Positions 10,398-39,148 of a stretch of 39,148 nucleotides of DNA are shown piece after piece. The stretch lies in UHGV virus genome UHGV-1485161; one strand, given 5' to 3'. A model generated the notes under the pieces. That model worked only from the letters and a program-made list of their open reading frames with translations. It ran no database searches and had not been told where the DNA came from. Made by a program: the position numbers and the translations under genes. Position 1 is the first letter of the stretch, and every line of letters begins with the position of its first letter. The DNA comes from a virus.

Positions 10398-10794
10398 CAG
10401 AAACAGGCTCTGCAGGCCCGGCGTCATCTGCCTGTTCAGGAGCATCATTCACCACAAACTCATACATACCGGACAGCCGGTACACCACGTTTTCAGCATG
10501 AGAAATTGCCTCCGTGGGCCAGGTGGTAAGCACTTCCTGCTCAATCTGTTTAACGGCTTCATTCATGGAAGGCAGCTTTGTCTTCTGCGGATGGTTATGC
10601 CACAGGGACATCGCCACCACAAAAGCGCCGGTTCTGATGGCGTCTTCCACAGTAAACTTCCGGTTGCTGTCTGACTCCGCCTGTTCTGCCTGTCGTTTCA
10701 TCAGGGCGAGATGCTCAATACGCTGCAGGGCTGACAGTTCAGAAAGCGTGACGGTCACACCGTTATGTTCAAATGATTCGGTTTTCAGGAACAT
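10372..10794 (-). CDS. G: tail assembly chaperone G
   Basis: Track ORF of 140 aa ending ...PVSAGKCSTVS, same length as lambda G, containing the slippery site. Confidence 0.9.
   Translation of the reverse strand: MFLKTESFEHNGVTVTLSELSALQRIEHLALMKRQAEQAESDSNRKFTVEDAIRTGAFVVAMSLWHNHPQKTKLPSMNEAVKQIEQEVLTTWPTEAISHAENVVYRLSGMYEFVVNDAPEQADDAGPAEPVSAGKCSTVS
10390..10396 (-). other. programmed -1 frameshift slippery heptamer G GGA AAG of the G/GT system
   Basis: Heptamer GGGAAAG read as GCG GGA AAG (A-G-K) seven codons before the G stop, the same site as in lambda. Confidence 0.75.
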
Positions 10795-20520: not shown

Positions 20521-20605
20521 CTGGAAAGGACCCGCAAATGATAATAATTATCATCTGCATATCACAACACCTGAAAGTCAACGCGCCCTGAAAGCTGATT
20601 TGCTG

Positions 20606-20920: not shown

Positions 20921-20943
20921 CAAAACCTCCTGACAAAGATACC

Positions 20944-20961
20944 GTGCGACCACGGTCGCAC
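20944..20961. repeat. 18-bp palindrome GTGCGACCACGGTCGCAC, copy 1
   Basis: Exact 18-mer, about 25 nt upstream of the 20920 start codon on the minus strand. Confidence 0.7.
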
Positions 20962-21163
20962 GCTCCTGAATACATGCCCTGTTTCTTCCACCCTCGCACA
21001 GGACTGGCGAGCATGAGGGACAAACCCGCGAATCATTAGCGCGGTAAAAACCCGGTGTGCATCGTTTTTGATTATTTCCGCACACTCGCGCAGAGGAGTT
21101 CCCCGTCGGGCTACGGTCATGGTTAATGCGGAAATACGGCGACGATGCAGCGCGGTATTTAAT

Positions 21164-21181
21164 GTGCGACCACGGTCGCAC
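21164..21181. repeat. 18-bp palindrome GTGCGACCACGGTCGCAC, copy 2
   Basis: Exact 18-mer between the 21201..21512 gene and the cos-proximal gene. Confidence 0.7.
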
Positions 21182-21200
21182 ACGAGAAACAAAGAGATTT

Positions 21201-24128: not shown

Positions 24129-24214
24129 TTGTTGGCTGTTGGGTACAAAAAACCCAACTTAACAAAACAATAACTAAAAACCGTCATTTTGCCAAGCTTT
24201 TTCGTTTTTGTGCT

Positions 24215-24232
24215 GTGCGACCGTGGTCGCAC
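24215..24232. repeat. 18-bp palindrome, copy 3 (GTGCGACCGTGGTCGCAC, reverse orientation)
   Basis: Exact 18-mer immediately after the stop of the 24238..24465 gene. Confidence 0.7.
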
Positions 24233-24237
24233 AGCTT

Positions 24238-25792: not shown

Positions 25793-26035
25793 TCAATGAA
25801 TTAACTGCGTAAACTGCTGTGTGGCCCGATACTTATGCTCTCTCCCTATGCCACGATCAACTTTCTCAAGAAGTCCAGTACGGACAGCAGAATCAAGCAT
25901 CCTTTTAACAATTCTGCTATTTAACCCAACATCAAAAGCAAGCATCGAAGCGAAAACAAACCCATCACCACCATCAGAAAAGCTCTTTTCGCTCCGTTTT
26001 CGTATCATTTCAAAAAGCAATGCCTTTTTATCCAT
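25793..26035 (-). CDS. hypothetical small protein
   Basis: Track ORF of 80 aa with GGAGGG 7 nt before the ATG, directly downstream of a CGTGACCAGTCACG palindrome. Confidence 0.45.
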   Translation of the reverse strand: MDKKALLFEMIRKRSEKSFSDGGDGFVFASMLAFDVGLNSRIVKRMLDSAVRTGLLEKVDRGIGREHKYRATQQFTQLIH

Positions 26036-26044
26036 TTATCCCTC

Positions 26045-26058
26045 CGTGACCAGTCACG
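26045..26058. repeat. 14-bp palindrome CGTGACCAGTCACG, copy 1
   Basis: Overlaps the stop of the 26054..26380 gene and precedes the RBS of the next gene. Confidence 0.6.
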
Positions 26059-26380
26059 CTTTGAGCGCAAGTTTCAGCCTCGTGGTTGTAAGGTGGCATG
26101 ACCCTTCGCCATCAAAAATGCATTCTGAAACAGGCATTTTTTGACCACATCGCGGGCAAGTAGTAGATAGCTGCTTCTGCAGCTCCTTATAGTTTTTCCT
26201 GATCAGCAAACCAATGACTTCGTTCTCCGAATATGGAACTCGCCCTGGTCTACGCAATACACAAATTTCCCCCAACATACGTAACTCGTCAGGTTCTAGA
26301 ATCCAGTCCCGTCTTGATGTGCCTTCCTTCTTCAACCGTTCCCTGCGTCTCCTTTGCCGTTCTGCCGGTGTCAGCGCCAT
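26054..26380 (-). CDS. hypothetical protein with C-terminal zinc-ribbon-like CPRCG...C motif
   Basis: Track ORF of 108 aa. Confidence 0.45.
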   Translation of the reverse strand: MALTPAERQRRRRERLKKEGTSRRDWILEPDELRMLGEICVLRRPGRVPYSENEVIGLLIRKNYKELQKQLSTTCPRCGQKMPVSECIFDGEGSCHLTTTRLKLALKA

Positions 26381-26395
26381 AAATCCTCCTGAAAA

Positions 26396-26848
26396 TTACT
26401 TAACCCAATTAACTACACCGCCAGCGGCCACAACCGCCCTTTCACAGTCACGCTCATATCTCAAAGGTTGAAATACACCATCAATAAAATATTTATCTCC
26501 ACCAAACGCTGCAGGAAGTGAAACAGAAAACTGAACATGACCATCCGGAGTTACCGGAGAGTTGCCAGCCTCATACGCCACACGCATCCAGTGCAGAAGC
26601 ATTTCAGTGCTCACACAGCCGCAATCAACATCAATTTTGCCGTGCTGCTGTTCCAGCCATTGCTCAAAAGTTAACTTGTAAGTTTGGCTTACAGGTTCTG
26701 CACTATCAGCTTCGCGCCGCTTCTGTAGCTCTGCTGCCATCGCTCTCACGACTTCAACTGGTGCCCTTGCAGCAAACTCTATGTTGGTGATCAGCTCATT
26801 AAGATATTGCTCGCCTGGATACTGTTTCTTATCGGTTATAGTGGTCAT
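26396..26848 (-). CDS. hypothetical protein
   Basis: Start MTTITDKKQYPGEQY overlapping the upstream stop (ATGA), inside track ORF 26396..26890. Confidence 0.5.
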   Translation of the reverse strand: MTTITDKKQYPGEQYLNELITNIEFAARAPVEVVRAMAAELQKRREADSAEPVSQTYKLTFEQWLEQQHGKIDVDCGCVSTEMLLHWMRVAYEAGNSPVTPDGHVQFSVSLPAAFGGDKYFIDGVFQPLRYERDCERAVVAAGGVVNWVK

Positions 26849-26849
26849 A

Positions 26850-27227
26850 TCACTCTCCTTTTCCCTGAAGCATAGCGGCACGGCAGGCATTCCACCCCTT
26901 CACATAACCGAACGCCATCAACTGATCACTCATGGCGGGCAGCATTGTGTGGGTCGTACTGATTTCTTCCGGCACTACCGGCGCTGGCGGGGCGATGCGT
27001 CCAAGCAACTTATTTACCTCTTTCGCCATCGCGTCATATTTATCTAAATGGCGATTAGCTTCTAAGCAGACTCGGCGCATCTGATCTGAGTTAACTCGTT
27101 TAACTGGATCTGCTTCCAGCGATGCCAGAGCAATTCGTGCCAGTTCCATTTGTTCGCCACGAGTAAGTCCGTTATCAAGCGGATTTTTAATGAACAATTC
27201 AATACGTTCTTTGGTAATAGTGGTCAT
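26850..27227 (-). CDS. DUF551-like protein (ead/Ea22-region family), paralogue 1
   Basis: Track ORF of 125 aa; N-terminus MTTITKERIELFIKNPLDNGLTRGEQMELARIALASLEA and C-terminus GWNACRAAMLQGKGE shared with 27502..27912. Confidence 0.55.
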   Translation of the reverse strand: MTTITKERIELFIKNPLDNGLTRGEQMELARIALASLEADPVKRVNSDQMRRVCLEANRHLDKYDAMAKEVNKLLGRIAPPAPVVPEEISTTHTMLPAMSDQLMAFGYVKGWNACRAAMLQGKGE

Positions 27228-27237
27228 GTGTTACTCC

Positions 27238-27501
27238 TTAACCCGCAGTGCTTTCAACTGATGAGGGGAACAAAATCTTTTCATCAAACCCTGCATTCAT
27301 ATCATGGACAGCAACACACCAATCCATTGACGAACGATTATCAAGAGCCTCCATGATTTCATCCATGCGGCGCAGGTCATACAGGTAAATGCTTTTATCG
27401 CCAATGGTGTAAAAACCAATTTTTTTCGGTGATGGGCAGCGATCAAGAACGTCCTGTAATTCGTTCAACCATGCCCGTTCTTTTTTGTTAAAGTTGCCAT
27501 A
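27238..27501 (-). CDS. hypothetical small protein, start probably displaced by a homopolymer indel
   Basis: Track ORF 27238..27468 begins on TTG; an ATG with ATGA overlap (MATLTKK...) lies upstream in another frame across an A6 run. Confidence 0.35.
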   Translation of the reverse strand, partial: YGNFNKKERAWLNELQDVLDRCPSPKKIGFYTIGDKSIYLYDLRRMDEIMEALDNRSSMDWCVAVHDMNAGFDEKILFPSSVESTAG

Positions 27502-27912
27502 TCACTCTCCTTTCCCATGAAGCATAGCGGCGCGGCAGGCGTTCCAGCCTGTAGCGTATGCAGCCGCTTTGCTGCTGCCTTCAACTGGCGCATCCTGCCA
27601 ATACATTTCATCCGGCACTACCGGCGCTGGCAAGGCAGCGTGATAGTAGAGTGGCATAGTTTTGTACAGTGGTTCGCCAGGACTTCCGTCAACCTGATTC
27701 CATTCTTCAACCCAGGCATCAACAACCGCTTTGCTGGTTGATACATGTTCTTCTGAATCTACATTTTGTCCTGATATACAGAACATAACTGCCTCTGCTT
27801 CCAGCGATGCCAGAGCAATTCGTGCCAGTTCCATTTGTTCGCCACGAGTAAGTCCGTTATCAAGCGGATTTTTAATGAATAATTTGATACGTTCTTTGGT
27901 TATAGCGTTCAT
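27502..27912 (-). CDS. DUF551-like protein, paralogue 2
   Basis: Start MNAITKERIKLFIKNPLDNGLTRGEQMELARIALASLEA with AGGAG RBS; C-terminus ...GWNACRAAMLHGKGE. Confidence 0.55.
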   Translation of the reverse strand: MNAITKERIKLFIKNPLDNGLTRGEQMELARIALASLEAEAVMFCISGQNVDSEEHVSTSKAVVDAWVEEWNQVDGSPGEPLYKTMPLYYHAALPAPVVPDEMYWQDAPVEGSSKAAAYATGWNACRAAMLHGKGE

Positions 27913-27913
27913 C

Positions 27914-28603
27914 TCACTCTCCTTTGATGCCAATGTTTACAGACTGGCAAGCCTCTTTGAGCACCCAGTCAACAGCGTCTTTCCATGCTCCGGTTTCGAC
28001 TGGCGGATTCTCACGCTTAACTTGTTCATAGAAACGCACGGCTTTAACCAGTCCTTCTGATGTCACCGGGACTGGCGGGGCAGTGAATAAGGCCTGAATC
28101 TCATAGCTCGGCCTGTCGTTGCAATCCTCTTTTGTCGGTACATATTTCCAGTCACCAACCCACGGCTCCCCCTGAGAGTCCGTAACGCCTTTTTTCACGT
28201 AGCGATATCGCCACGCTACAGGCTCCGCCGCCAGCGCCGCGCGATTGCTCTCCAGCTCTGCAATGCGCTGTTTTGCGGTATCAAGTTCAATCGATAATTT
28301 TTCCAACTGCTCTTTATGCTTCTTGTATTCCTGATATGCGTGCCAGGACTGACCTTTGCGCACACTATCAGTAATATCAGTAATCTGTTCTGGTGTTAGC
28401 GTGGTCAGTGGCTGTGCTGGGAAAATCAGCACTTTCCCGGAATCCCAATCAAAACCAGCGTGAATTGACTGAACCTCAACTGAGGGTGTTGAACCAATGC
28501 TGCCAGGCGAATGAATAACGATTGTTACATCCATATCGCGACGATGGCTGTGGTTGTTGGACAAAATACGATTCACCAACTCAGAAAATTTGGAAAATTT
28601 CAT
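27914..28603 (-). CDS. coiled-coil protein with DUF551-like C-terminus, paralogue 3
   Basis: Track ORF of 229 aa; central coiled coil (EQLEKLSIELDTAKQRIAELESNRAALAA) and a C-terminal region resembling the two paralogues above. Confidence 0.5.
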   Translation of the reverse strand: MKFSKFSELVNRILSNNHSHRRDMDVTIVIHSPGSIGSTPSVEVQSIHAGFDWDSGKVLIFPAQPLTTLTPEQITDITDSVRKGQSWHAYQEYKKHKEQLEKLSIELDTAKQRIAELESNRAALAAEPVAWRYRYVKKGVTDSQGEPWVGDWKYVPTKEDCNDRPSYEIQALFTAPPVPVTSEGLVKAVRFYEQVKRENPPVETGAWKDAVDWVLKEACQSVNIGIKGE

Positions 28604-28890
28604 GCTGATTCCCCTTTCTCTGCTCTCTCCTGTCGGAACATCACTATCATCAGGTCGCCTTTTGTCGCTATCTTGGCTGTTGTGCCTGGCTCAATGCGGC
28701 TAAGTTCAAATGCGTCATAGAACGCCTCTAACACTTTCTGGCGTCTTTCCTGTTTGCGGTGCTTTCCCCACTGCTTTAGAAAAACAGAGGCCGCCCACTT
28801 CCCCGCACTGAACATGATGTAAAACCAACCGAGAAGTGCCAGACCGATATTTAGGGCCGTATCGATCGTTATCGTGGTGTCGATATTCAC
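28600..28890 (-). CDS. small membrane protein
   Basis: Track ORF of 96 aa with one strong hydrophobic helix (LNIGLALLGWFYIMF). Confidence 0.45.
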   Translation of the reverse strand: MNIDTTITIDTALNIGLALLGWFYIMFSAGKWAASVFLKQWGKHRKQERRQKVLEAFYDAFELSRIEPGTTAKIATKGDLMIVMFRQERAEKGESA

Positions 28891-29310
28891 TACGCCACCT
28901 CCTGTAAATTTCCCTGATAAAAAGCCAGCACACGCTGCATAACTTCACTTTTCCGGCAATCGTGACAAATCATGTTCAAGCGCCTGTCGTAACGACGTAT
29001 TTCTCCGTCAGGTAATGACCAGATAAGGTCTGGATCAACCACTACCGATTTCTTCGGCTTTACTCTTGATAGTTTTTTTACGGGCGTTTTGCCAGTCCTT
29101 GCGTGCTTGTGCAGACAGAAATATCCCGGAGCCAGAGATATACAAATCACCACTGGCAGCAAGCTCTCTTGATAAACGACTAACAGCACACCGGCTAATA
29201 CCAGTTTCATCCGCAAGTTGCCTAACCGTTCCTCGTCCATTCAGGCGCACGAGTTCCACAATTTGTTTATTCAGTTCTTCCCTCTGTTCTGGTGTAAAAG
29301 CCTTTGCCAT
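28890..29310 (-). CDS. HTH DNA-binding protein, possibly with a C-terminal Zn-ribbon extension split by a frameshift
   Basis: Track ORF 29035..29310 (MAKAFTPEQREELNKQIVELVRLNGRGTVRQLADETGISRCAVSRL..., HTH). Removing one A from the A7 run near 29074-29080 continues it into ...VVVDPDLIWSLPDGEIRRYDRRLNMICHDCRKSEV... (track ORF 28890..29240). Confidence 0.45.
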
Positions 29311-29909
29311 TACGATTCTCCTTGCCCTTTTACAAGACGGGAGAAAATTGCGGATACATATTTAGCCTGATGAATAGCATCAGCCAAGGCATTGTGTCGT
29401 TGGCCATCAAATGGCATATCTTTTTTAGGATTAAAACCAATAAACTGACCAAGATTAACGATTGTTCGAACATCCTGATCATTAAAATATTCCCACGGAC
29501 AGGCTAAGCCAACGCGCTCATAAGCACCGCGTAAAATTACATTATCGAACGTTGCTCCATTTCCCCATACTTTCAACTTTTTTAAATTACATGCATGGCA
29601 AGTAATAAAGTGTGATAATTCAAAAAGTGCATCATTAATATCAAGGGCATCATTAGTACAAATAGCGGCTCTGGCTTCCTTGCTCTGTTTCAACCACCAT
29701 AAAATGGTATCACCATCGGCGATACCACCATTCAACATCGAGCTTCTGAGATTCACTGGCACATAAAAAGTAGGACCTAATTCCTCACTTTCTGGAGAAA
29801 AAAACACTGCCCCGATAGAAACAATTGGAGCACATGTGTTAGTACCCATTGTTTCAAGGTCAATCATTACATCAGACCGTTTCCTGTCGTAAATAATCTG
29901 ATTAGTCAC
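29310..29909 (-). CDS. DnaQ-like 3'-5' exonuclease (DEDDh family)
   Basis: Track ORF of 199 aa with Exo I motif VMIDLETMG and Exo III motif HNALADAIHQAKYV. Confidence 0.7.
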   Translation of the reverse strand: MTNQIIYDRKRSDVMIDLETMGTNTCAPIVSIGAVFFSPESEELGPTFYVPVNLRSSMLNGGIADGDTILWWLKQSKEARAAICTNDALDINDALFELSHFITCHACNLKKLKVWGNGATFDNVILRGAYERVGLACPWEYFNDQDVRTIVNLGQFIGFNPKKDMPFDGQRHNALADAIHQAKYVSAIFSRLVKGQGES

Positions 29910-29932
29910 GAATAATTCTCCTCAACGTTTAT

Positions 29933-30136
29933 CTATACCCAAATTTTCTGTTGATATGTTCTGGATGGTTTTGGCGTTCTTTCTGATTCAGGTAAATGAA
30001 CATAAACACAATATCCATCACCTAAAAAATCAGAACGAACAACCAGAACTTTCTTACCACGCCGCCGATAAGTATCTGAAAGACGCTCTGCTTCATCATG
30101 CGTCATCGGCCCCTGCTTAAATGGCGTTATTTTCAT
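29933..30136 (-). CDS. hypothetical small protein
   Basis: Internal ATG (MKITPFKQGPMTHDEAERL...) 6 nt downstream of palindrome copy 4; the track ORF start lies inside the palindrome. Confidence 0.4.
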   Translation of the reverse strand: MKITPFKQGPMTHDEAERLSDTYRRRGKKVLVVRSDFLGDGYCVYVHLPESERTPKPSRTYQQKIWV

Positions 30137-30362
30137 TTTCTTGTGCGACCACGGTCGCACCCTCTCTGATTTCCAAGTAACGCTTAATCCAAAGATTTTC
30201 TATATGCTTATTACCTGGCTGATTTGATAAATACCAATCGGCAATTACAGACTGCTTATTACTATCTGGTCGTGTCCTATAACCACAAGTTGGACACCAG
30301 ATAACATATTCATTTCTTACCCCCGAATACCTTAATTCTGGCTTCGACGGTTTCCTGAACAT
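30117..30362 (-). CDS. small zinc-finger-like protein (CPTCGY motif)
   Basis: Internal start MFRKPSKPELRYSGVRNEYVIWCPTCGYRTRPDS... within track ORF 30117..30437. Confidence 0.4.
   Translation of the reverse strand: MFRKPSKPELRYSGVRNEYVIWCPTCGYRTRPDSNKQSVIADWYLSNQPGNKHIENLWIKRYLEIREGATVVAQENENNAI
30143..30160. repeat. 18-bp palindrome GTGCGACCACGGTCGCAC, copy 4
   Basis: Exact 18-mer spanning the 3' end of one gene and the 5' UTR of the next. Confidence 0.7.
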
Positions 30363-30369
30363 AACTTGT

Positions 30370-31080
30370 TTACAAAGGCAGAATGGCACTTCCTGCCCGA
30401 TGGCGTTTGATGATTTCACTGCGCTTCTCCGCCGCATTTAATAATGCAGTTCGATTTAAGCTCAGACATCGCGACTTAATTAAAAGCCAGCGTTCTTTAT
30501 AATCTTGTCTCCAGCTATCAATAGATATATTCAGTAGAAAACTCAGATGCCTGTCCTGTTCTCTCTCATCAACTGCCTCAGCACACGTAAGTTCTGATTT
30601 AACCTGTTGTGCCGCGTAATAAATCAATTTTCGCATAGCTTTTTTCGTGGAGGCCTTCATTTTTTTAAAGCCGCCCCCCGAATGAGCAACCAGAAAATCA
30701 AGCCATAACCACTGACAAACAATCACATCATTGTTGTAATCAGGCTTGCATCCGTAGCAATAATAAAGCCAGGCTGATTCCTCGTTATTCAACTGACCAA
30801 TAGCCCTGCGCCAGCTGGCGCTCTGAAAATCAATATCAGTGAGCAACATTGATGATTGTTTAAATGTTTTCCCCTGATGGAATCTAACCGGCTCAGCAGA
30901 AACGGACACTTCGTATGAGTTATCATCCCCCACACTGATTGACCGGACTGGTTTATTGTTAAACCGTCCTGATCTACCGAGACGCATCTGCTCAAGCTGG
31001 ACCTCCAGAATGCCACGCTGGAGATAATGAACATCAGCCAATGCCGTAGAGACGCAGCTGCGTATATACTCAAGCTCCAC
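30370..31080 (-). CDS. early regulator directly downstream of cro; possible Q-like antiterminator or CII-position protein
   Basis: Track ORF of 236 aa with a Cys-rich segment (YYCYGCKPDYNNDVIVCQW); function inferred only from position. Confidence 0.4.
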   Translation of the reverse strand: MELEYIRSCVSTALADVHYLQRGILEVQLEQMRLGRSGRFNNKPVRSISVGDDNSYEVSVSAEPVRFHQGKTFKQSSMLLTDIDFQSASWRRAIGQLNNEESAWLYYCYGCKPDYNNDVIVCQWLWLDFLVAHSGGGFKKMKASTKKAMRKLIYYAAQQVKSELTCAEAVDEREQDRHLSFLLNISIDSWRQDYKERWLLIKSRCLSLNRTALLNAAEKRSEIIKRHRAGSAILPL

Positions 31081-31291
31081 GCTTACGACTCTCCTTAATC
31101 GACTGCTTTACCCGCCGAGTTGTAAAGTCACTCTTCAGCTTATAAGCAGTACGAACTTCAATATCGCTTTGCCGCAATGAAGGAATCTCTCCAGCGGTTA
31201 ACCATTGGTAAACAGCTCCGGGTGTTACACCTACCCCTGCCGCTGCTTTTTCTACACTGCCAAAATGGCGAATAAGTTCTTCTGGTTTCAT
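31070..31291 (-). CDS. Cro/YdaS-like HTH regulator
   Basis: MKPEELIRHFGSVEKAAAGVGVTPGAVYQWLTAGEIPSLRQSDIE..., divergent from the repressor gene across the operator region. Confidence 0.65.
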   Translation of the reverse strand: MKPEELIRHFGSVEKAAAGVGVTPGAVYQWLTAGEIPSLRQSDIEVRTAYKLKSDFTTRRVKQSIKESRKRGA

Positions 31292-31318
31292 GTTGTTATT
31301 ATAAACAATAAACAACAA

Positions 31319-31360
31319 TTAAAGCCAGCTATAATAAATAAATTTTATAGCCAGCTATAA
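31319..31360. promoter_or_regulatory. immunity-region operators: two 16-bp palindromes TTA(A/T)AGCCAGCTATAA, 26 bp centre to centre, between cro-like and cI-like genes
   Basis: Sites at 31319-31334 and 31345-31360 with 7-bp inverted arms TTATAGC/GCTATAA, in the 91-bp divergent intergenic region. Confidence 0.55.
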
Positions 31361-31382
31361 GAAGATCATTTATGATTAAGCT

Positions 31383-31979
31383 ATGAAAACACGAGGCGAA
31401 CGACTGAAAGCACGCCGTTTAGAGATGAAGCTGACGTTGCGAGAAGTTGCTGAGGCTGTCGATATCTCTATAGCAGGCGTCCAAAACTTAGAACGTGGCG
31501 ACGTAATGCCGTCACTGGAGATAGGTATTGCCCTGGCTAAGTGCTTACGCAAGCCAGTGCATTGGGTGCTATATGGGACAGAATATGACCCTGATCGCAT
31601 TCCTGTTATTGGCACAACTGAAAGTGGGCCGGATGAAGAGTGGAAGCCGGGACAGGTTCCAAATACTGAGCGATTCCTGCCATTCATCAGCCAGCGCAAT
31701 ACTGTGTATGCGTTAACTATCAGCAATCTTACGCAGGGAAACTATCAGCCAGGCGATTTTCTCCTGGTCGATTCTGCGCTGGAACTGGTCCCCGGCGAGG
31801 ATGTTCTGGTTCGTGATACTGCAGGAAATATCACTATCCAGCGCCTGGCCCGTTTTGATGATGAAAATTACTATCTGGATGGAACAAACTCACAACGCGC
31901 CATCTTCAGGAAAAGCGATCTTGAATTTGTTCACCAAATAGTCGGAACGATCAAATCATTCATGGTTGAGGGTAGATGA
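31383..31979 (+). CDS. CI-like repressor (N-terminal XRE HTH plus C-terminal S24/LexA-like domain)
   Basis: Track ORF of 198 aa; HTH LKARRLEMKLTLREVAEAVDISIAGVQNLERGD; C-terminal domain ...GDFLLVDSALELVPGEDVLVRD...; I could not find a clear GxSM nucleophile motif. Confidence 0.8.
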   Translation: MKTRGERLKARRLEMKLTLREVAEAVDISIAGVQNLERGDVMPSLEIGIALAKCLRKPVHWVLYGTEYDPDRIPVIGTTESGPDEEWKPGQVPNTERFLPFISQRNTVYALTISNLTQGNYQPGDFLLVDSALELVPGEDVLVRDTAGNITIQRLARFDDENYYLDGTNSQRAIFRKSDLEFVHQIVGTIKSFMVEGR

Positions 31980-32080
31980 CTTAATATGGGGTTTATTGTT
32001 TACTGTAAATCTGGTTTAATGCAGGGCATATGTTCTGTGGGTTGACTCAGGTTACAGCAGCAGAAAAAAGACGAAAAAAA

Positions 32081-32110
32081 ACCCGAGTCGGCAAACTCGG
32101 GTCCTTTTCA
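32081..32110 (+). terminator. putative intrinsic terminator downstream of the repressor gene
   Basis: Hairpin ACCCGAG-N7-CTCGGGT flanked by A8 upstream and a short T run downstream (potentially bidirectional). Confidence 0.4.
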
Positions 32111-32224
32111 GGAAGCAGCCACAACAACGCGACGGATTCCGTCAATTCAAGATGCGTTTATTGTGGCTGCTCCTGCGGATTTTTTCAACCCGAAAAAACA
32201 TAATTCGCATGGAATGGCTAAAAA

Positions 32225-35200
32225 ATGACATTAAACGATTTCTATGCGGAATCGCATTTGGCAGCGATCCGTTCATCGCTAATTGAAGCAGCACGGGATG
32301 AACTAACCGAGCTGGCACAGATGGCTGGTATCAACTGGTCTGCCTGTTCCGACAACATCCAACTCAACCCTCGCGGGGGTGTTGAGCGTTACTCTTCATA
32401 CAATAAAACATCTCCAGAAGCTCTCGAGAAGAGCCTCAAAGGACGCGTAGAAATTTACTCCCGACTGGAACACAGCAAAGGGATTGATTACCCGTTCATT
32501 AACTTCGTCCATAAAGGCAGCGATGCTGGCTCATGGAGCGGTTTCTCCTTCCTGTTTTCTGAATATCGCCGTGAGCAACAACGGAATAATGCGACCGTGG
32601 TCGCACAACCGGAAGAAGAACGGGCAAGAATAGAACGTGAAGCACGTCGTCGCCGTGAAGAACAAAAACGAATTAATGACCTGAAAAACAACCAAATGGA
32701 CCATGAACGTTTGCTGGGATGGCTGGCATTCCACAGTGCTTGGGAACATGCTCCTGCAGAAGACGGCTCATGGCCATATGCGATTAAAAAAGGTATTCGT
32801 GACGTTTTTAATTCGTGTGATGTGCGTCGCGTGACCAGTCACGACAGCGCAAAATGGAGCAGGGGGCCAACCACGTATATGGCTATCCCTCTGGCTCACC
32901 TGGACGGTCGTTACGATGGTCGTATTGTTGGTTGGCAGCGAATCGACAAACAAGGTGGAAAATACCAGACCAGCGCCGTAACCAGCGGCGATTTCGTCGG
33001 TGCCTGCTTTGTTATCGGTGAGCTGAAAGGGGCGCAAAACATCGCTGTTACAGAAGGTTTTGCTACTGGTGCATCCATCTGGCTTGCCACGAAAAAAGAT
33101 AAACGCTTTGACGCTGTGGTTGTCGCTGTATCCGCTAACAACATGGTTCATGTTGTGGAACAACTGGTAAACATGTACCCGGCGGCAAAAATCACCTGCG
33201 CACTGGATAATGACCGGAAATCAGCTACAGAAGGAAAAGGGAATACCGGCCTGCGGACTGGCTATGAAATCTTATCGAAATTCAACGATGTCCGCTGCGT
33301 CTATCCAACTTTTGAAGACGATCCGCAAATGGAGTGCAGTGACTTCAACGACCTGCACAAACTACGTGGACTTCGTGAAACAGCACGTCAACTGTTTGCA
33401 ACTGCAAACCGCCTGAAAACTGGCACTGATTTGCTATCTCTGACGCTCAACCGCCTGAAGACAATTAAGCGGGATAACCGTCGTACTTTTGCCAAAGAGC
33501 TGCTGAGAGCGGTGGATATTGGCATGCTAACCTGCCCGGTTCCTAACAGTCCGTCAGATTTATTTAACATGTTCTGCATCGTTCTGCGTGAAATGGGACT
33601 GGAAAATATCTATCGCGCTACGGTAAAAGACCACATTGCCCGTCGCCTGAATAAAAAGTGCCGTATTGCCCAGGCTCCGCGCTCTTTCAGCGAACGCATA
33701 ACTGATCCCAATAAACGCCCTCAACATATCACCTATAAGCGTTTTGAAACTTCGGTAATGACCGATGATGTCCTGAAGTACGTGCAATCACTACAGGGGA
33801 TAGTCATCGTCCGTGCTGGTATGGGTTCCGGCAAATCTACTGGATTGTTACGACCGTTAATGCATAGCTCAGAACGTGGTATCTCTGTTGCTCACCGTGT
33901 CTCCCTTATTGGTGGCCTGTGGGAAATGATGACAGAAGGAAAAGGTGTAAAAGCCGATATCCTGCACTATCAGGACCCTGGCTATCAGGAAATGGCTCCA
34001 TACGCCAGTAAACTGACCATCTGCATAAACTCGATTGTTAAAAACTGCTGGCAACCGTTGATGCGCCAGCACGACTATTTTGGCTTTGACGAGGCCACGC
34101 AAGGGCTACGTGCCGTTCTTTCCGGTCGGGCTATGGAAAACCCGGTTGCTGTATTCAATACGCTAATTGACGCGCTGGCCAGAACGGAACAACACCCAAT
34201 CATGGTGGATGCTGATGCGAACGATCTACTGGTTGACCTGGCTGAACTGGCTATGAAACGCCGTGAAGAACTAGGTTTACCGGCATGGCTGCAGATCCAC
34301 GTAATTGAATTACCTGTTGATGTTCGCAACCGCGAAACAGGTGAGCCAATCCGGGTTTTTTATACAGAAAAAGATCGCATCATGACCGAGGTGGTGAAAG
34401 CTGTATCGGATGGCGAAAAAATCATGTTGGCCACCGACAGCTCCACCTTTGCAGAAGATGTGACAGCCACCCTGAGAATGCATTTTCCTGGTAAGAAATT
34501 TCTGTGTGTAAACCAGAAAAACAAACCAGAGCCAGAAGTTGAAGCATTTACCAATCAACCGAAAAAGATGGTCAAAAAATACGACGGCCTGATTTATAGC
34601 CCGTCTATTTCATCCGGCGTGTCGATTGAGCAAAAACATTTTGACCGTCATTTCGGCATGTTCTGTGGTGAAGTTGTACCCAGCGACGCAGTGCAAATGC
34701 TACGCCGCGACCGTACAGCAAAAGAATTTATTATCGGCTTTGATAAAGCTCGTGCAAAACGTGAAACTGACCCGCAAAAAATAGAACGAGCATTCGCCCA
34801 GGCATTGCTTGCTACCGCAGGTATGAACGGTGAACTTACGGATGTCGTTTTCGATGGCGACCGTATATCAATGGGGGTGGCCAATACCGACTTTACCAGG
34901 ATGAAAATTAAAGCAGCCGCAATTGAAGCGACTGCGCGTAACGACTACGCCAGCAACATGATCTGCATCATGCACAGCGACGGTTATAAGGTATCACCGC
35001 TGGCCACCGATTATGCTGCGAATGATATCGGTAAAGATCTGCGTAAAGAAGCGCGGGATATTGTGTGGGAACAGACACTGGATCTGCACCTCAATACAGA
35101 AACTCCACAAGAATCAGAGCGTGAAGAACTGCTAAAAAAACGCGCGCTGACGCTTGAAGAACAGGCAAAACTTGTCCGCTGGGATATTGAAAACGAACTG

Positions 35201-36217
35201 AAACTACCGGTTGAAGAAGGCACGCTGAAATTCTATTTCGATGGTGCTCGAGACAAAGTTCGCCGCTATGAAACAATGCTTTTAGATGAGGTAACAGCTC
35301 GTCGTTACGACCGGGAAGAAGCAGCCATCAATTTTACCTACGCATACCGTCAGGCGGGACAGTGGCAATATTTTGTAGTGACCGCGATGACTCGCGAGCA
35401 GGCTGATGATGTCTTTAAAACTAAATTCCCTGGAATAATCGATCACAAGGTAAAAGCTACTCCTACTGTTGAAGTCGGGGCGCGCGGTTTCTATGCGCTT
35501 AAATCAGCAACTCTCCGGCAGTACTTTATCGACTGCGGTATCAACCCTGAGACTATGACCGGCGAGGCGACTCAGGAGCGTCTCAAATTCGCTCGAGATA
35601 ACCTCATGACAGCCGAACGCCGTGACCTGTTGAATAACGTTCTGCACATTGGTGGTTTTATGACGCCAAAAGGGAAGCCTAAAGTGCCGGAAGCGTTGTT
35701 TAAAAACATTTGCGACTCTCTTGGCCTTAAAACAGGTAAACGTCGCGGCAGAGACGGCGATAAGCGTCCAACCTTGCGTTTTGTTGAGCCTGAATCAGCG
35801 GCATTTATGCTGGATATTCTTGCTCAGCGTCAGAAAGATGGCCTAACCCTGAAAACGCGTAAAGCCGAGAAGACCGCCATCGAAATGGATCGCGATTTGG
35901 ATCTCAATATATATATGGATGATAAAACGCGATCCACAAACGAGCAGGTTCAAAACGCCCCTCATTCAGTAATTTCTGAGGCTTTGGCTGTGTTGCCAGT
36001 GGTTGTACCTGAGTCCTGGGCGATGAGTGCGCTTTCCGGTGAGGAGCTGGCCACTATGTCATCATGGTCATCAGCCAGCATAGCTATGACGTTTGCCTCT
36101 CTGTACCTCACAGAGTTCATGGATCACTTATCCAGCAATGAACTGCGGCGGTTACGTGAATACATTACCGGGAATAGCCCATGCAGCTACGAAGAGCAGG
36201 GCGCTTTCTATGGGTAA
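32225..36217 (+). CDS. replication protein: Toprim primase domain plus P-loop NTPase/helicase, N15 RepA-like architecture
   Basis: Track ORF of 1330 aa with Toprim motifs (IAVTEGFATGASIW, CALDNDRKS), Walker A VRAGMGSGKST and Walker B YFGFDEATQ, and a long C-terminal region. Size and gene order (repressor then replicase on the same strand) recall N15 repA from memory. Confidence 0.7.
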   Translation: MTLNDFYAESHLAAIRSSLIEAARDELTELAQMAGINWSACSDNIQLNPRGGVERYSSYNKTSPEALEKSLKGRVEIYSRLEHSKGIDYPFINFVHKGSDAGSWSGFSFLFSEYRREQQRNNATVVAQPEEERARIEREARRRREEQKRINDLKNNQMDHERLLGWLAFHSAWEHAPAEDGSWPYAIKKGIRDVFNSCDVRRVTSHDSAKWSRGPTTYMAIPLAHLDGRYDGRIVGWQRIDKQGGKYQTSAVTSGDFVGACFVIGELKGAQNIAVTEGFATGASIWLATKKDKRFDAVVVAVSANNMVHVVEQLVNMYPAAKITCALDNDRKSATEGKGNTGLRTGYEILSKFNDVRCVYPTFEDDPQMECSDFNDLHKLRGLRETARQLFATANRLKTGTDLLSLTLNRLKTIKRDNRRTFAKELLRAVDIGMLTCPVPNSPSDLFNMFCIVLREMGLENIYRATVKDHIARRLNKKCRIAQAPRSFSERITDPNKRPQHITYKRFETSVMTDDVLKYVQSLQGIVIVRAGMGSGKSTGLLRPLMHSSERGISVAHRVSLIGGLWEMMTEGKGVKADILHYQDPGYQEMAPYASKLTICINSIVKNCWQPLMRQHDYFGFDEATQGLRAVLSGRAMENPVAVFNTLIDALARTEQHPIMVDADANDLLVDLAELAMKRREELGLPAWLQIHVIELPVDVRNRETGEPIRVFYTEKDRIMTEVVKAVSDGEKIMLATDSSTFAEDVTATLRMHFPGKKFLCVNQKNKPEPEVEAFTNQPKKMVKKYDGLIYSPSISSGVSIEQKHFDRHFGMFCGEVVPSDAVQMLRRDRTAKEFIIGFDKARAKRETDPQKIERAFAQALLATAGMNGELTDVVFDGDRISMGVANTDFTRMKIKAAAIEATARNDYASNMICIMHSDGYKVSPLATDYAANDIGKDLRKEARDIVWEQTLDLHLNTETPQESEREELLKKRALTLEEQAKLVRWDIENELKLPVEEGTLKFYFDGARDKVRRYETMLLDEVTARRYDREEAAINFTYAYRQAGQWQYFVVTAMTREQADDVFKTKFPGIIDHKVKATPTVEVGARGFYALKSATLRQYFIDCGINPETMTGEATQERLKFARDNLMTAERRDLLNNVLHIGGFMTPKGKPKVPEALFKNICDSLGLKTGKRRGRDGDKRPTLRFVEPESAAFMLDILAQRQKDGLTLKTRKAEKTAIEMDRDLDLNIYMDDKTRSTNEQVQNAPHSVISEALAVLPVVVPESWAMSALSGEELATMSSWSSASIAMTFASLYLTEFMDHLSSNELRRLREYITGNSPCSYEEQGAFYG
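32590..32606. repeat. 18-bp palindrome, copy 5 (17 of 18 match), inside the replicase coding region
   Basis: TGCGACCGTGGTCGCAC within codons NNATVVAQ. Confidence 0.6.
32830..32843. repeat. 14-bp palindrome CGTGACCAGTCACG, copy 2, inside the replicase coding region
   Basis: Exact 14-mer about 240 bp downstream of palindrome copy 5. Confidence 0.6.
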
Positions 36218-36401
36218 TCAGTGGATATTATCTTTGTGTCTCTTGCTTTGTGTGTTCCAGCAATGGTTTTGGTTCATAGATCGAAAGTCTCACAAGGAAA
36301 ACATGAAGGCCAGGAAGGCGATGTTTCGTGGTGAACAACTCGCGCAGACTTATCGTATGTGGAAACGTTTCTATCGTGATTTTTCGGTTAACGGGGAGTA
36401 A
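36210..36401 (+). CDS. possible small membrane peptide overlapping the replicase stop
   Basis: ATG overlapping the repA stop; MGNQWILSLCLLLCVFQQWFWFIDRK... has one hydrophobic helix then a basic tail. An alternative start MKARKAM at about 36303 has an AAGGA RBS. Confidence 0.3.
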   Translation: MGNQWILSLCLLLCVFQQWFWFIDRKSHKENMKARKAMFRGEQLAQTYRMWKRFYRDFSVNGE

Positions 36402-36405
36402 AAAT

Positions 36406-37131
36406 ATGTCTACTACTGCATTTTTGGACAAACTTGATTACCGTCAGCTGCAGTTTTGCCGGGATGAATGCGATCGACGCATTAAGGCTATCCAGGAGGA
36501 AGAAAAAAAGGTTGCCTGGGCTGTAACAGATCGTGGCCTTATCTTTGGCTGGTTCCGTACGGAGGATTATCTGAAAGCAGTGGAGTTATTGGCGCGTGAG
36601 GCTGCTGAGCGTTGGGAACGAGCCGACAAGGAAAACCCGGAGACGAAGTATGAACTGAATCTCTACATCGAGGGCAACCATCTACCATTGTCAGAGTATA
36701 ACGCTTTGTTTGCTGATGGTGAGTGGGGTTTAAAAATGGCTGTTCAATCATACAAATACGAATCCCCTTTGGATAAGGGATACATTCGTATCAAGTTAAG
36801 TCGTTCTCAGCATAAGGCTATTTTTAAGGTAAGGAAAATTCGCATATTGGATGCGTATGCGTATTACTACAACGGTGAAAATGTTGTTGTTGAACACTTT
36901 CTTGCACGATGGTTTGTAGCTCTGATTTTTGTCCCTCTCCTGTTAATTGGTACTTTTGTGGATGGTTTTCCTAGTACATGGCGGGAGATAAAGAAAGGCC
37001 TATTCCCGCGTAAGTACGGCAGATTTTCGCAAGATAGCTGGCGAGTTATACCTGGTAAACATTCTGTGGATGAGCAGCCGATTGTTGATTACTGGTTGAA
37101 GCGTATGGCTGATGCTAAAAAAGTTGATTGA
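36406..37131 (+). CDS. hypothetical protein with C-terminal transmembrane helix
   Basis: ATG with GGGGAG RBS inside track ORF 36328..37131; MSTTAFLDKLDYRQLQFCRDECDRRIKAIQEEEKK...; TM segment FLARWFVALIFVPLLLIGTFV. Confidence 0.55.
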   Translation: MSTTAFLDKLDYRQLQFCRDECDRRIKAIQEEEKKVAWAVTDRGLIFGWFRTEDYLKAVELLAREAAERWERADKENPETKYELNLYIEGNHLPLSEYNALFADGEWGLKMAVQSYKYESPLDKGYIRIKLSRSQHKAIFKVRKIRILDAYAYYYNGENVVVEHFLARWFVALIFVPLLLIGTFVDGFPSTWREIKKGLFPRKYGRFSQDSWRVIPGKHSVDEQPIVDYWLKRMADAKKVD

Positions 37132-37158
37132 GTTGTGATAACTGTTACAGGAGATAAA

Positions 37159-37446
37159 GTGAAGAGTTTTATTTTGGTTTTATGTTTTGCCTTTTCTGCT
37201 GCGGTTTATGCCCAGGAAGATAGCATTTCTGTTATTAACTCATCAGCGGAGCTTGCATGTAAAAATAATCCCGATGCTGCATCAAAAGAATCATGCAAAG
37301 AACTGCTCCTTTCGACGGCTGCTTTTGCTTCTGAAAATGCGAAATTTTATTCAGCCTTCTGTCGCGGCTATGTTAAGGAAGAAGATAAAGAAAAATGTGA
37401 TGATGCCGGTAAGTTAGTTAGGTATTTCCACTCTCTTAATCCGTAA
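37159..37446 (+). CDS. small secreted Cys-containing protein
   Basis: GTG start with AGGAG RBS; signal peptide KSFILVLCFAFSAAVYA then QEDSISV...; the mature part has five Cys. Track ORF starts at 37135. Confidence 0.5.
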   Translation: MKSFILVLCFAFSAAVYAQEDSISVINSSAELACKNNPDAASKESCKELLLSTAAFASENAKFYSAFCRGYVKEEDKEKCDDAGKLVRYFHSLNP

Positions 37447-37507
37447 TGGCCTTTGATTAACGATCAACTTCTGATCACTCGTTCAAGCAAACTATAAAAA
37501 CACCTGT

Positions 37508-37527
37508 CCCCGTGACTGGTCACGGGG
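37508..37527. repeat. 20-bp palindrome CCCCGTGACTGGTCACGGGG (14-bp family, copy 3)
   Basis: Perfect inverted repeat in the intergenic region after the secreted-protein gene. Confidence 0.6.
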
Positions 37528-37636
37528 TAAAATGTCTTTGCAAATTATTGACGTGTGCGTCGTTTTAACGGTAAAGTTACTCCGCTGCGGCAAATTCCGC
37601 AGCCGGGCGTGAGAACCCGGATAAACGAAGCGCACA

Positions 37637-37660
37637 ACACGCGCCAGCGTGTTTTTTTTT
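37637..37660 (+). terminator. intrinsic terminator
   Basis: Hairpin ACACGC-GCCA-GCGTGT followed by T9 on the plus strand. Confidence 0.6.
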
Positions 37661-37826
37661 GTGTGTATATACCTGCGCATATCCGATTTATGGTGGCTCA
37701 GGCGGGGCTGACTTCGGTCAGGCCGGTTTCTTCGTTTGCCGGTATTCTCACCCCCGCTTGGGCTACCACCATTCAAGAGCGTGAGAACTCTGGTGGTAGC
37801 ACGACCAATTAAACGGAGTGCATACC

Positions 37827-38221: not shown

Positions 38222-38925
38222 GCGCGTTAGCAGTCTTTTCCTTTCAGGAAGAGCATCAGGTACGTGTAGTGATGATTAACGGCGATCCGTGGTTTGTGGC
38301 GAATGATATTTGCAATGCTTTAAGCATCCAGAATGTCACACAAGCTATCGCTCGATTAGATGAAGATGAGCGATCTATGTTTAACATAGGCCGTCAAGGT
38401 CAAGCCAATATCATCAGTGAATCAGGTCTTTACACGCTCATTCTCCGCTGCCGTGACGCGGTGAAGCAAGGCACAACAGCTTGGCGGTTTCGCAAATGGG
38501 TAACGAACGAAGTCTTGCCCTCTATTCGTAAAAATGGAGAGTACGTTTACATCGAGCCTGAGCCAATGCGAGCAGCGGAGCCGTTGAACTGGAGGCAGAA
38601 AGAGTATCTGCGAGGGCTGATTAACGATATAGCACAAAGTTTTCAGTACCGAAATGCCTGGATTAGCGGTGTATGGTTAGCTTTGCGTCGGGCGTGTCGT
38701 AATCCATCCCCGAACCCCATAACGGTTGATGATTTGCCAGCAATTACGGCAGAACTGCGCCGGATTTTGACGGCTGCTGAGTCGGCATTGGGGAACATGC
38801 GCACGTATGAACGAGAGTTGTTGCGTGATGTTGTTCGTGGGGGTAGGCGGAGTATGTCGTGTGGTGATTTACCCATCACCGATATTAACTCTGATCTGGA
38901 AAAGGCGTTACCCGCGCATTTTTGA
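38218..38925 (+). CDS. Bro-N domain protein (antirepressor-like)
   Basis: Track ORF of 235 aa; N-terminus ...VRVVMINGDPWFVANDICNALSI...ESGLYTLILRCRDAVKQGTTAWRFRKWVTNEVLPSIRKNG is the Bro-N/KilA-N signature. Confidence 0.75.
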   Translation: MSALAVFSFQEEHQVRVVMINGDPWFVANDICNALSIQNVTQAIARLDEDERSMFNIGRQGQANIISESGLYTLILRCRDAVKQGTTAWRFRKWVTNEVLPSIRKNGEYVYIEPEPMRAAEPLNWRQKEYLRGLINDIAQSFQYRNAWISGVWLALRRACRNPSPNPITVDDLPAITAELRRILTAAESALGNMRTYERELLRDVVRGGRRSMSCGDLPITDINSDLEKALPAHF

Positions 38926-39148
38926 ACTGGCAGTTCAAAAAACTTGAGCAGTTATCCGCGCAGCTAAAGCCAGCAGAAAATCACCAATAAATAGGGTTGA
39001 CCAGCCCGAATTTATGCCCTTCTTAGAGAAGGGAAGCCTCGCAGTCGGGGCGGTGATGTCTGTGGTTGCAGCCGCGTTTCCTCCGTTACTTCTGCCCTTT
39101 GCAGGGGGCAGGCGAGGTAGGTCACACAACAAGGCACCGTTAATTCGG

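Follow-up and report, generated by a model that had tools for sequence, protein, structure and literature searches.

A palindrome family dispersed over an N15-type plasmid-prophage is linked to the gene-46 protein family in unrelated phages

The UHGV virus genome UHGV-1485161, a stretch of 39,148 nucleotides (nt) that was analyzed at full length and is referred to here as the window, carries three copies of a short palindrome, GTGAC-NN-GTCAC. Our analyses show that these sites are real, that they are under selection at the nucleotide level and that, across unrelated phages, they are tightly linked to one small protein family, that of gene 46 of phage N15. From these sequence comparisons, the three palindromes are probably operators of the phage's own gene-46-family protein.

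In its full form, CGTGACNNGTCACG, with a CA or TG center, the motif has exactly three matches in the window (26045, 32830 and 37511) and none in 100 dinucleotide-preserving shuffles of it. When one mismatch is allowed in the 12-bp core, a single extra site appears (18820), which is the chance level. The preliminary description of this DNA had reported three copies at these positions, the third of them extended to a perfect 20-bp palindrome, and both statements are correct. The gene-46 homologue has its stop codon within site 1 (26045-26058, CA center), which in turn borders on the gene-47 homologue's ribosome-binding site. Read on the minus strand, site 1 runs CG-TGA-CTGGTCACG, in which TGA is the stop of the open reading frame (ORF) 26054-26380(-), and it is followed by a GGAGGG ribosome-binding site and then by the ATG of ORF 25793-26035(-). 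Site 2 (32830-32843, CA center) is located inside repA (32225-36217), 606 nt into the gene, where it takes up codons 202-206; the reading cgc GTG ACC AGT CAC gac encodes R-V-T-S-H-D (codons 202-207). Site 3 (TG center, core 37511-37524) lies at the 3' end of the repA operon, 62 nt past the stop of the last gene of that operon, ORF 37135-37446(+), and extends to the perfect 20-bp palindrome CCCCGTGACTGGTCACGGGG at 37508-37527. The copies are thus found where they had been said to lie, at gene boundaries and inside the replicase gene, with site 1 on a stop codon and ribosome-binding site, site 3 after a stop codon and site 2 in repA.

Over its right 15 kb, the window shares 98% identity with Escherichia phage PhiR46_1 and ∼75% with N15 and phiKO2, and by this comparison it is an N15-type linear plasmid-prophage, reversed relative to the N15 map. 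Comparison with these relatives reveals that the sites are retained in both number and place. N15 contains exactly three GTGAC-NN-GTCAC copies, at 28550, 33237 and 39269, the last of which is the counterpart of site 1, and phiKO2 and PhiR46_1 (complete genome, 46.3 kb) contain exactly three core copies each. In all three phages the copies are at the same shared places, that is, at the gene-46 stop, in repA and upstream of the antirepressor operon. We also collected 46 IMG/VR loci with RepA proteins 74-99% identical, and every copy within reach of their sequence is kept; site 1 is present in 44 of the 46 and is absent only where the locus ends too soon. Across these loci the core is invariant, the flanks vary and the center is CA/TG or, occasionally, CC/GG. 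Unlike the core, the 20-bp arms of site 3 are not conserved among the relatives. The distance between site 3 and the promoter that follows it is identical in all of them.

The copy inside repA permits selection on the nucleotide sequence to be separated from selection on the protein. We analyzed the first 500 codons of 35 distinct repA sequences. An invariant degenerate amino acid is encoded by 307 of the 500 codons, and the codon itself is fixed in only 38 of these 307 (12%). Codons 202-206, which form site 2, are each represented by one codon in all 35 sequences; nowhere else in the first 500 codons are four or more consecutive codons fixed, and only 0.009 five-codon runs of this kind would be expected. 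This unique run indicates that site 2 is selected as a nucleotide sequence, beyond its coding function. A lone half-site, CGTGAC, at 32798-32803, 27 bp upstream of site 2, lies in codons 191-193 (ATT CGT GAC), which likewise show no synonymous changes in the 35 sequences, and may represent an auxiliary half-site. The preliminary description had named conservation in homologous phages, including synonymous positions of the replicase gene, and genome-wide frequency as the points on which the family should be judged: the copies are conserved in every homologous N15-type phage examined, synonymous positions included, and their frequency is far above chance, so the grounds for rejection named there do not apply. 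PY54, with a RepA 49% identical, harbors neither the GTGAC-NN-GTCAC motif nor a gene-46 homologue; it does retain sopC-type sites, including one at the repA IR1 position, as well as a gene-47 homologue.

The window contains a further dispersed palindrome, an 18-bp family of the form GTGCGACC-NN-GGTCGCAC, with five copies (20943-20962, 21163-21182, 24212-24235, 30143-30160 and 32590-32605), compared with four GCGACC-NN-GGTCGC repeats in N15. Two of the five (20943 and 21163) are only 220 bp apart, and the sopAB genes are outside the window. The N15 repeats are the dispersed SopB centromere sites IR1-IR4, and in the phiKO2 record the equivalents of these SopB-type repeats are annotated as partition sites. 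Given that the 18-bp family matches these centromere repeats, the GTGAC-NN-GTCAC family is, by its sequence, an element separate from the SopB centromere, in agreement with the preliminary description, which had treated the two as distinct and had placed site 2 240 bp from an 18-bp-family copy (the copy at 32590-32605). The N15 SopB repeats do resemble the sites described here in being short palindromes scattered over the same genome, one of which is located in repA despite the cost in codon choice, and SopB bound at the N15 repeats also influences transcription. The two differ in that SopB is a ParB-type helix-turn-helix protein, its site is GCGACC-NN-GGTCGC and the distribution of its sites is another one.

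An alternative reading is that the GTGAC sites belong to the partition system and, as relatives of the 18-bp family, are variant or secondary centromere sites for SopB (ParB). In its favor, the first five bases of GCGACC, the N15-type half-site, are similar to GTGAC, site 2 is close to the SopB-type repeat in repA, and both PY54 and a Citrobacter N15-like phage have an additional sopC-type site ∼20 bp past the site-2 position. We nevertheless regard it as very improbable. Arm length and arm spacing both differ: the arms here are GTGAC (5 bp) around a 2-bp center, compared with 6-7-bp arms of GCGACC (N15) or GGGACC (F, PY54) in sopC-like repeats. Moreover, the motif is found in phages without SopAB, namely epsilon15 and prophages integrated beside icd. 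Finally, PY54 and the Citrobacter phage harbor F-type GGGACC centromeres, yet the Citrobacter repA retains GTGACCAGTCAC unchanged; the site therefore does not shift with the centromere type. As separate observations, the N-terminal part of repA gathers cis-sites (PY54, L172, ∼31000-31260; Citrobacter phage, L173, 5063-5103 and 5336-5349), and the peptide at the IR1 position follows the centromere type, being ATVVA with GCGACC and GTTVP with GGGACC.

The link between the sites and the gene-46 family extends beyond the N15-type phages. Loci of distant homologues were picked by protein similarity alone, and their genomic context was then inspected. In homologues of 29-37% identity the TGA stop of the gene falls within a GTGAC-NN-GTCAC site, with further exact copies nearby. 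This arrangement is seen in integrase- and ParA-encoding phages with a G+C content of about 0.6 (L175, L176 and L180), in a Pseudomonas lurida contig that also represents an integrase- and ParA-encoding phage (L184), in prophages beside icd (L177 and L178), in a prophage of a host with a G+C content of 0.34 (L185), in locus L044 and in epsilon15 gp49. The stop-codon overlap thus occurs in at least five lineages, and the sites are enriched more than 100-fold in loci chosen by homology alone; nine such loci contain 20 exact sites compared with ∼0.16 expected. In Salinivibrio L183 and Vibrio phage K303, there are three copies each, none of which is on the stop codon, and one copy is located 11-20 nt before the start codon of the terminase small subunit.

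The stop-codon overlap is also seen in the epsilon15-like subfamily, which comprises more than 552 IMG/VR contigs and the cultured members epsilon15 (gp49), phiV10, ZF40 and Tyrion. The gene-46-family stop lies in a site in 72 of the 79 loci counted, and 131 sites were found in 801 kb. The epsilon15 gp49 record itself notes a similarity to N15 gp46. Epsilon15 has three copies, one after the large terminase gene, one on the gp18 stop and one on the gp49 stop, and the latter two are just before annotated terminators. The annotated repressor operators of epsilon15 have a different sequence from GTGAC-NN-GTCAC.

Several observations weigh against the sites being operators of the gene-46-family protein. 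The connection between protein and site is one of guilt by association, and only site 3 in the window lies near a recognizable promoter. A homologue in an Aeromonas P2-like prophage (L179) is not accompanied by sites, and one on a conjugative plasmid (L186) lacks the 12-bp sites and has only 11-bp variants, GTGAC-N-GTCAC. The Citrobacter N15-like phage (L173) encodes a 55%-identical gene-46 homologue, yet site 1 is gone and the 1.7 kb examined past repA contain no site 3, so that the repA copy is the only one left. Conversely, L042, L053, L066 and L078 carry several sites and no gene of the family in the stretch examined.

Some of these loci have features of their own. In L173 the stretch expected to contain site 3 (556-579) carries a CB/Cro-operator-like palindrome, ATTTTTATAGCTTGCTATAAAAAT, and no GTGAC site, and the control of this region may have been rewired. 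The two 11-bp variants of L186 are at 9934 and 10079, one of them 67 bp upstream of the gene-46-family gene and the other inside that gene, and a search with this plasmid homologue as query found no relatives among the genome contigs. A SprT-like neighbor gene in L186 led us to consider ArdK of plasmid R388, which was rejected; ArdK is a helix-turn-helix protein of the KorA type whose targets are direct repeats (PMC9723621). In L078, six GTGAC-NN-GTCAC sites are arranged as three 45-bp repeats with paired sites 17 bp apart (10585-10703), inside a 416-residue ORF with a MUG113/T5orf172 domain, where they are translated as VTSH repeats. The arrangement resembles that of an iteron or centromere array, and the 12 kb examined contain no gene of the gene-46 family.

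The candidate binding protein is the homologue of N15 gene 46 (26054-26380, minus strand; 108 residues), which belongs to PHROG 536, annotated as "transcriptional regulator." This family is found in N15, phiKO2, epsilon15, phiV10, ZF40, many Vibrio phages and hundreds of prophage contigs. The protein has no match in Pfam or NCBIfam; a full HMMER scan gave 68 family representatives, down to ∼30% identity. In their alignment, an Arg-rich N-terminal helix is invariant (R8, R13), a β-α-α succession is seen, as is typical of ribbon-helix-helix proteins, and the C terminus carries a CxxC...C...C motif. These features suggest a ribbon-helix-helix-like core followed by a putative Cys-rich zinc ribbon at the C terminus. 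The residues of the predicted β-strand vary between lineages; the Arg-rich helix is conserved. In the window protein the N terminus reads AERQRRRRERLKK. The C-terminal half (residues ∼49-108) gives a weak profile match to DksA-type zinc fingers of TraR and YbiI (E = 0.02-0.03), and its pattern, CxxCG..P......F.G...C, is similar to that of the TraR/YbiI fingers, which bind RNA polymerase. Neither the protein nor the family profile has a significant match among solved structures (best E values, 0.065 and 0.02, respectively), and a Foldseek search of the protein against the PDB returned nothing significant. No homology to lambda Ea8.5 was found (hhalign probability <1%). A dyad site and the gene for a candidate ribbon-helix-helix protein co-occur, the pairing that is looked for in an operator. 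The gene-47 protein (ORF 25793-26035, minus strand; 80 residues), encoded immediately downstream of site 1, was also considered as the binder and rejected: PY54, which is free of sites, has a homologue, and in the annotated records of the other lineages the site is not followed by any equivalent gene.

The architecture of the sites bears on whether they are read as DNA or as RNA. The half-site consensus is Y-GTGAC on both arms. In more than 150 distinct site contexts the stem shows no variation or compensatory change, and only the center dinucleotide is variable; it differs by lineage, being CA/TG in the N15-like phages (52 of 57), AT in the epsilon15-like phages (86 of 99) and GC/AC in the Vibrio phages. 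The predicted β-strand of the protein differs among these lineages as well. At several sites the flanks, in sense orientation, are C and A and do not pair, and sites 1 and 2 have unremarkable folding energies (z = -1.1 and -1.8). This combination of an invariant stem, a variable center, unpairable flanks and weak hairpins favors recognition of duplex DNA by a symmetric dimer.

The alternative is a short boxB-like hairpin bound by the Arg-rich N terminus, leading to N-like antitermination or to translational control of the next gene. The gene-46 N terminus resembles the arginine-rich motifs of lambdoid N proteins, and many sites lie in transcribed DNA directly 5' of a ribosome-binding site (site 1 of the window, L185 and the terminase small-subunit genes of K303 and L183). 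Other sites are 20-40 nt before terminator-like hairpins, and in several lineages no further early gene stands between the gene-46-family gene and the late genes. Such a mechanism is unlikely, as a boxB or nut RNA site would need a conserved loop and a covarying stem, and here it is the would-be loop that varies and the stem that never does. In addition, the stems are only 5 bp long, with energies that are not unusual for sites 1 and 2, the C and A flanks cannot extend them, the protein core looks like a dimeric fold for binding double-stranded DNA and the phased six-site array of L078 resembles a DNA-binding array. Other RNA structures were considered too. An intrinsic terminator was rejected, as no T-run follows any of the three copies and the terminator scans list none there; a stable RNA structure is unconvincing, with sites 1 and 2 weak and the extended arms of site 3 not conserved.

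A protein of the host rather than of the phage could also be the binder. MatP, which organizes the Ter macrodomain of E. coli, is a ribbon-helix-helix protein with a four-helix bundle and a coiled coil, and SlmA, which acts in nucleoid occlusion, is a host protein of the TetR family. Binding of either to the sites would tie the plasmid prophage to chromosome organization or cell division, and N15-type prophages are low-copy plasmids that need segregation. The consensus matS site, GTGACRNYGTCAC, is a 13-bp GTGAC-RNY-GTCAC sequence with half-sites identical to those of the GTGAC-NN-GTCAC family, and the SlmA site, GTGAGTACTCAC, is a 12-bp palindrome, equal in length to the core described here and with the outer GTGA...TCAC in common (PMC6907758, PMC3116907). 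MatP is also among the structural neighbors of the gene-46 protein. Despite these similarities, we consider recognition by MatP or SlmA to be quite improbable. The center of matS is 3 bp, compared with 2 bp, and never 3, at every syntenic copy in all N15-like relatives examined, so that the half-sites match and the center is 1 bp too short. The SlmA site has G and C at positions 5 and 8, where the sites described here have C and G; its center differs as well, and it has no link to the phage gene. A zinc ribbon and an Arg-rich helix set the gene-46 family apart from MatP, and hhalign detects no sequence similarity between the two (probability, 0.2%). Further, the motif follows the gene-46 family into the Pseudomonas lurida contig and into the host with a G+C content of 0.34, on the stop of the gene in each case, and a motif that tracks a phage family across hosts is therefore expected to have a phage-encoded partner rather than a host one. 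Lastly, PY54 is a phage of Yersinia, which has MatP, and is without such sites.

Known operators were compared as well. The preliminary description had noted that the inner GTGA-N4-TCAC is reminiscent of, but not spaced like, a CRP site, and this is correct: GTGA and TCAC are 4 bp apart at all copies, compared with 6 bp in the CRP site (TGTGA-N6-TCACA, a 22-bp dyad). A LexA site was ruled out by sequence and spacing, as was the N15 CB/Cro operator (TATAGC-NN-GCTATA, between cB and cro), a type represented in the window by a separate copy at 31345-31360.

The gene context of the sites suggests how an operator role for the gene-46-family protein might be exerted. In the window, cro (31070-31318, minus strand) and Q (30370-31080, minus strand) belong to an early operon with genes that run down to 25507 and that include the gene-46 homologue, and cB (31383-31979) and repA, which encodes the primase/helicase replicase, are on the plus strand; the tail, head and lysis genes are on the minus strand. 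Sites 1 and 3 are near the ends of the two divergent early operons. Downstream of site 3 is a σ70-like promoter, TTGACG-18-TAAAGT (37548-37577, plus strand), of the immA-type antirepressor operon; the center of site 3 is ∼67 bp upstream of the transcription start, and the site lies 31 bp upstream of the −35 element. The region that follows (37571-37773, plus strand) contains c4-a1b1 targets, an isrK-like RNA and a C4 antisense RNA, with Rfam matches above the gathering scores, and is therefore the P1-type antirepressor control region called immA in N15. The placement of sites at the boundaries of transcription units is also evident in other phages. In the epsilon15-like phages a terminator-like hairpin lies within 100 nt in 59 of 113 distinct contexts, compared with 68 of 600 random positions, and in epsilon15 itself each of three transcription units has a site at its end. 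The gene-46-family gene comes last among the early genes, ahead of late or lysis genes, in three other lineages.

We propose that each operator would consist of two Y-GTGAC half-sites around a 2-bp center, bound by a dimer of the gene-46 protein. From the position of gene 46 in the cro-Q early operon, the protein would be expected to appear after derepression. It would then occupy site 1, on its own stop codon, upstream of the gene-47 ribosome-binding site and near the end of the rightward early operon; site 2, 606 nt into repA; and site 3, at the end of the repA operon and ∼67 bp before the start of the C4/isrK-controlled antirepressor operon. Given the location of the sites at operon ends, near terminator-like hairpins and after the last early gene, the bound protein may act at transcription-unit boundaries, controlling the passage of RNA polymerase or its initiation there as a roadblock, insulator or read-through switch. 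In the window, this could curb or modulate repA transcription and affect read-through or activation into the antirepressor operon.

The closest functional analogues would be phage and plasmid regulators with dispersed operators. KorB, with its OB sites on RK2, and the ribbon-helix-helix repressor omega of pSM19035 are plasmid global regulators of this type. The gene-46 system, as proposed, is alike in that one small DNA-binding protein would serve identical operators that are scattered over the element, some at promoters and some far from them; it differs in that neither protein is homologous to the gene-46 family. An operator inside the stop codon of the regulator's own gene is not known from the KorB or omega systems. 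Lambda Q and N are comparable in gene position, as the gene-46-family gene is, in several lineages, the last in the early operon before a late promoter and terminator or before lysis or terminase genes, and lambda N shares the Arg-rich N terminus. In contrast, there is no similarity to lambda Q in sequence or fold, and N15-type phages encode a separate Q homologue. Nor are the sites Q-binding elements within promoters or boxB loops; they are dyad-symmetric DNA motifs. A more far-reaching view, which we put forward only as speculation of low probability, is that the gene-46/epsilon15-gp49 family represents a new class of phage factors acting at transcription boundaries. In this view, GTGAC-NN-GTCAC sites at transcription-unit ends, including that of the factor's own unit, would be recognized by the ribbon-helix-helix part, and the TraR/DksA-like zinc ribbon would contact RNA polymerase as it reaches the site. 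Transcription would thereby be switched between termination and read-through into the late genes (epsilon15-like and Vibrio phages) or into the antirepressor and replication operons (N15-like phages).

Two other palindromes were observed in the window. A 23-bp palindrome, TTTTTGAACTGGCAGTTCAAAAA, at 38919-38941 overlaps the last codons of a Bro-N antirepressor-like gene and, judged by PhiR46_1, faces a gene for a 634-residue "hypothetical protein" that occupies the position of the protelomerase gene of N15 and phiKO2; this palindrome is probably a bidirectional terminator. A Fur-box-like palindrome, ATGATAATAATTATCAT, is located at 20538-20554, ∼225 bp upstream of the start of the small-terminase gene (20314), and PY54 (L172) has ATGATAATCATTATCAT at 46228-46244, ∼100 bp from the right end of its record.

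The GTGAC-NN-GTCAC family is not annotated in the N15 and phiKO2 records, which do annotate operators, partition sites, promoters and terminators, and full-text literature searches for the motif and for gp46 and gp49 found nothing relevant; within these records and the literature searched, it appears to be undescribed. N15 is the model linear plasmid-prophage and its derivatives serve as cloning vectors, and an unrecognized cis-element in repA and before the antirepressor operon is relevant to the control of copy number and to the lysis/lysogeny decision. The identity of the half-sites with those of matS raises the question of cross-talk with MatP. More broadly, an unusual arrangement, in which the putative operator encloses the stop codon of the very gene with which it co-occurs, has been kept across unrelated phages, and PHROG 536, a widespread family of unknown function, gains a testable DNA target.

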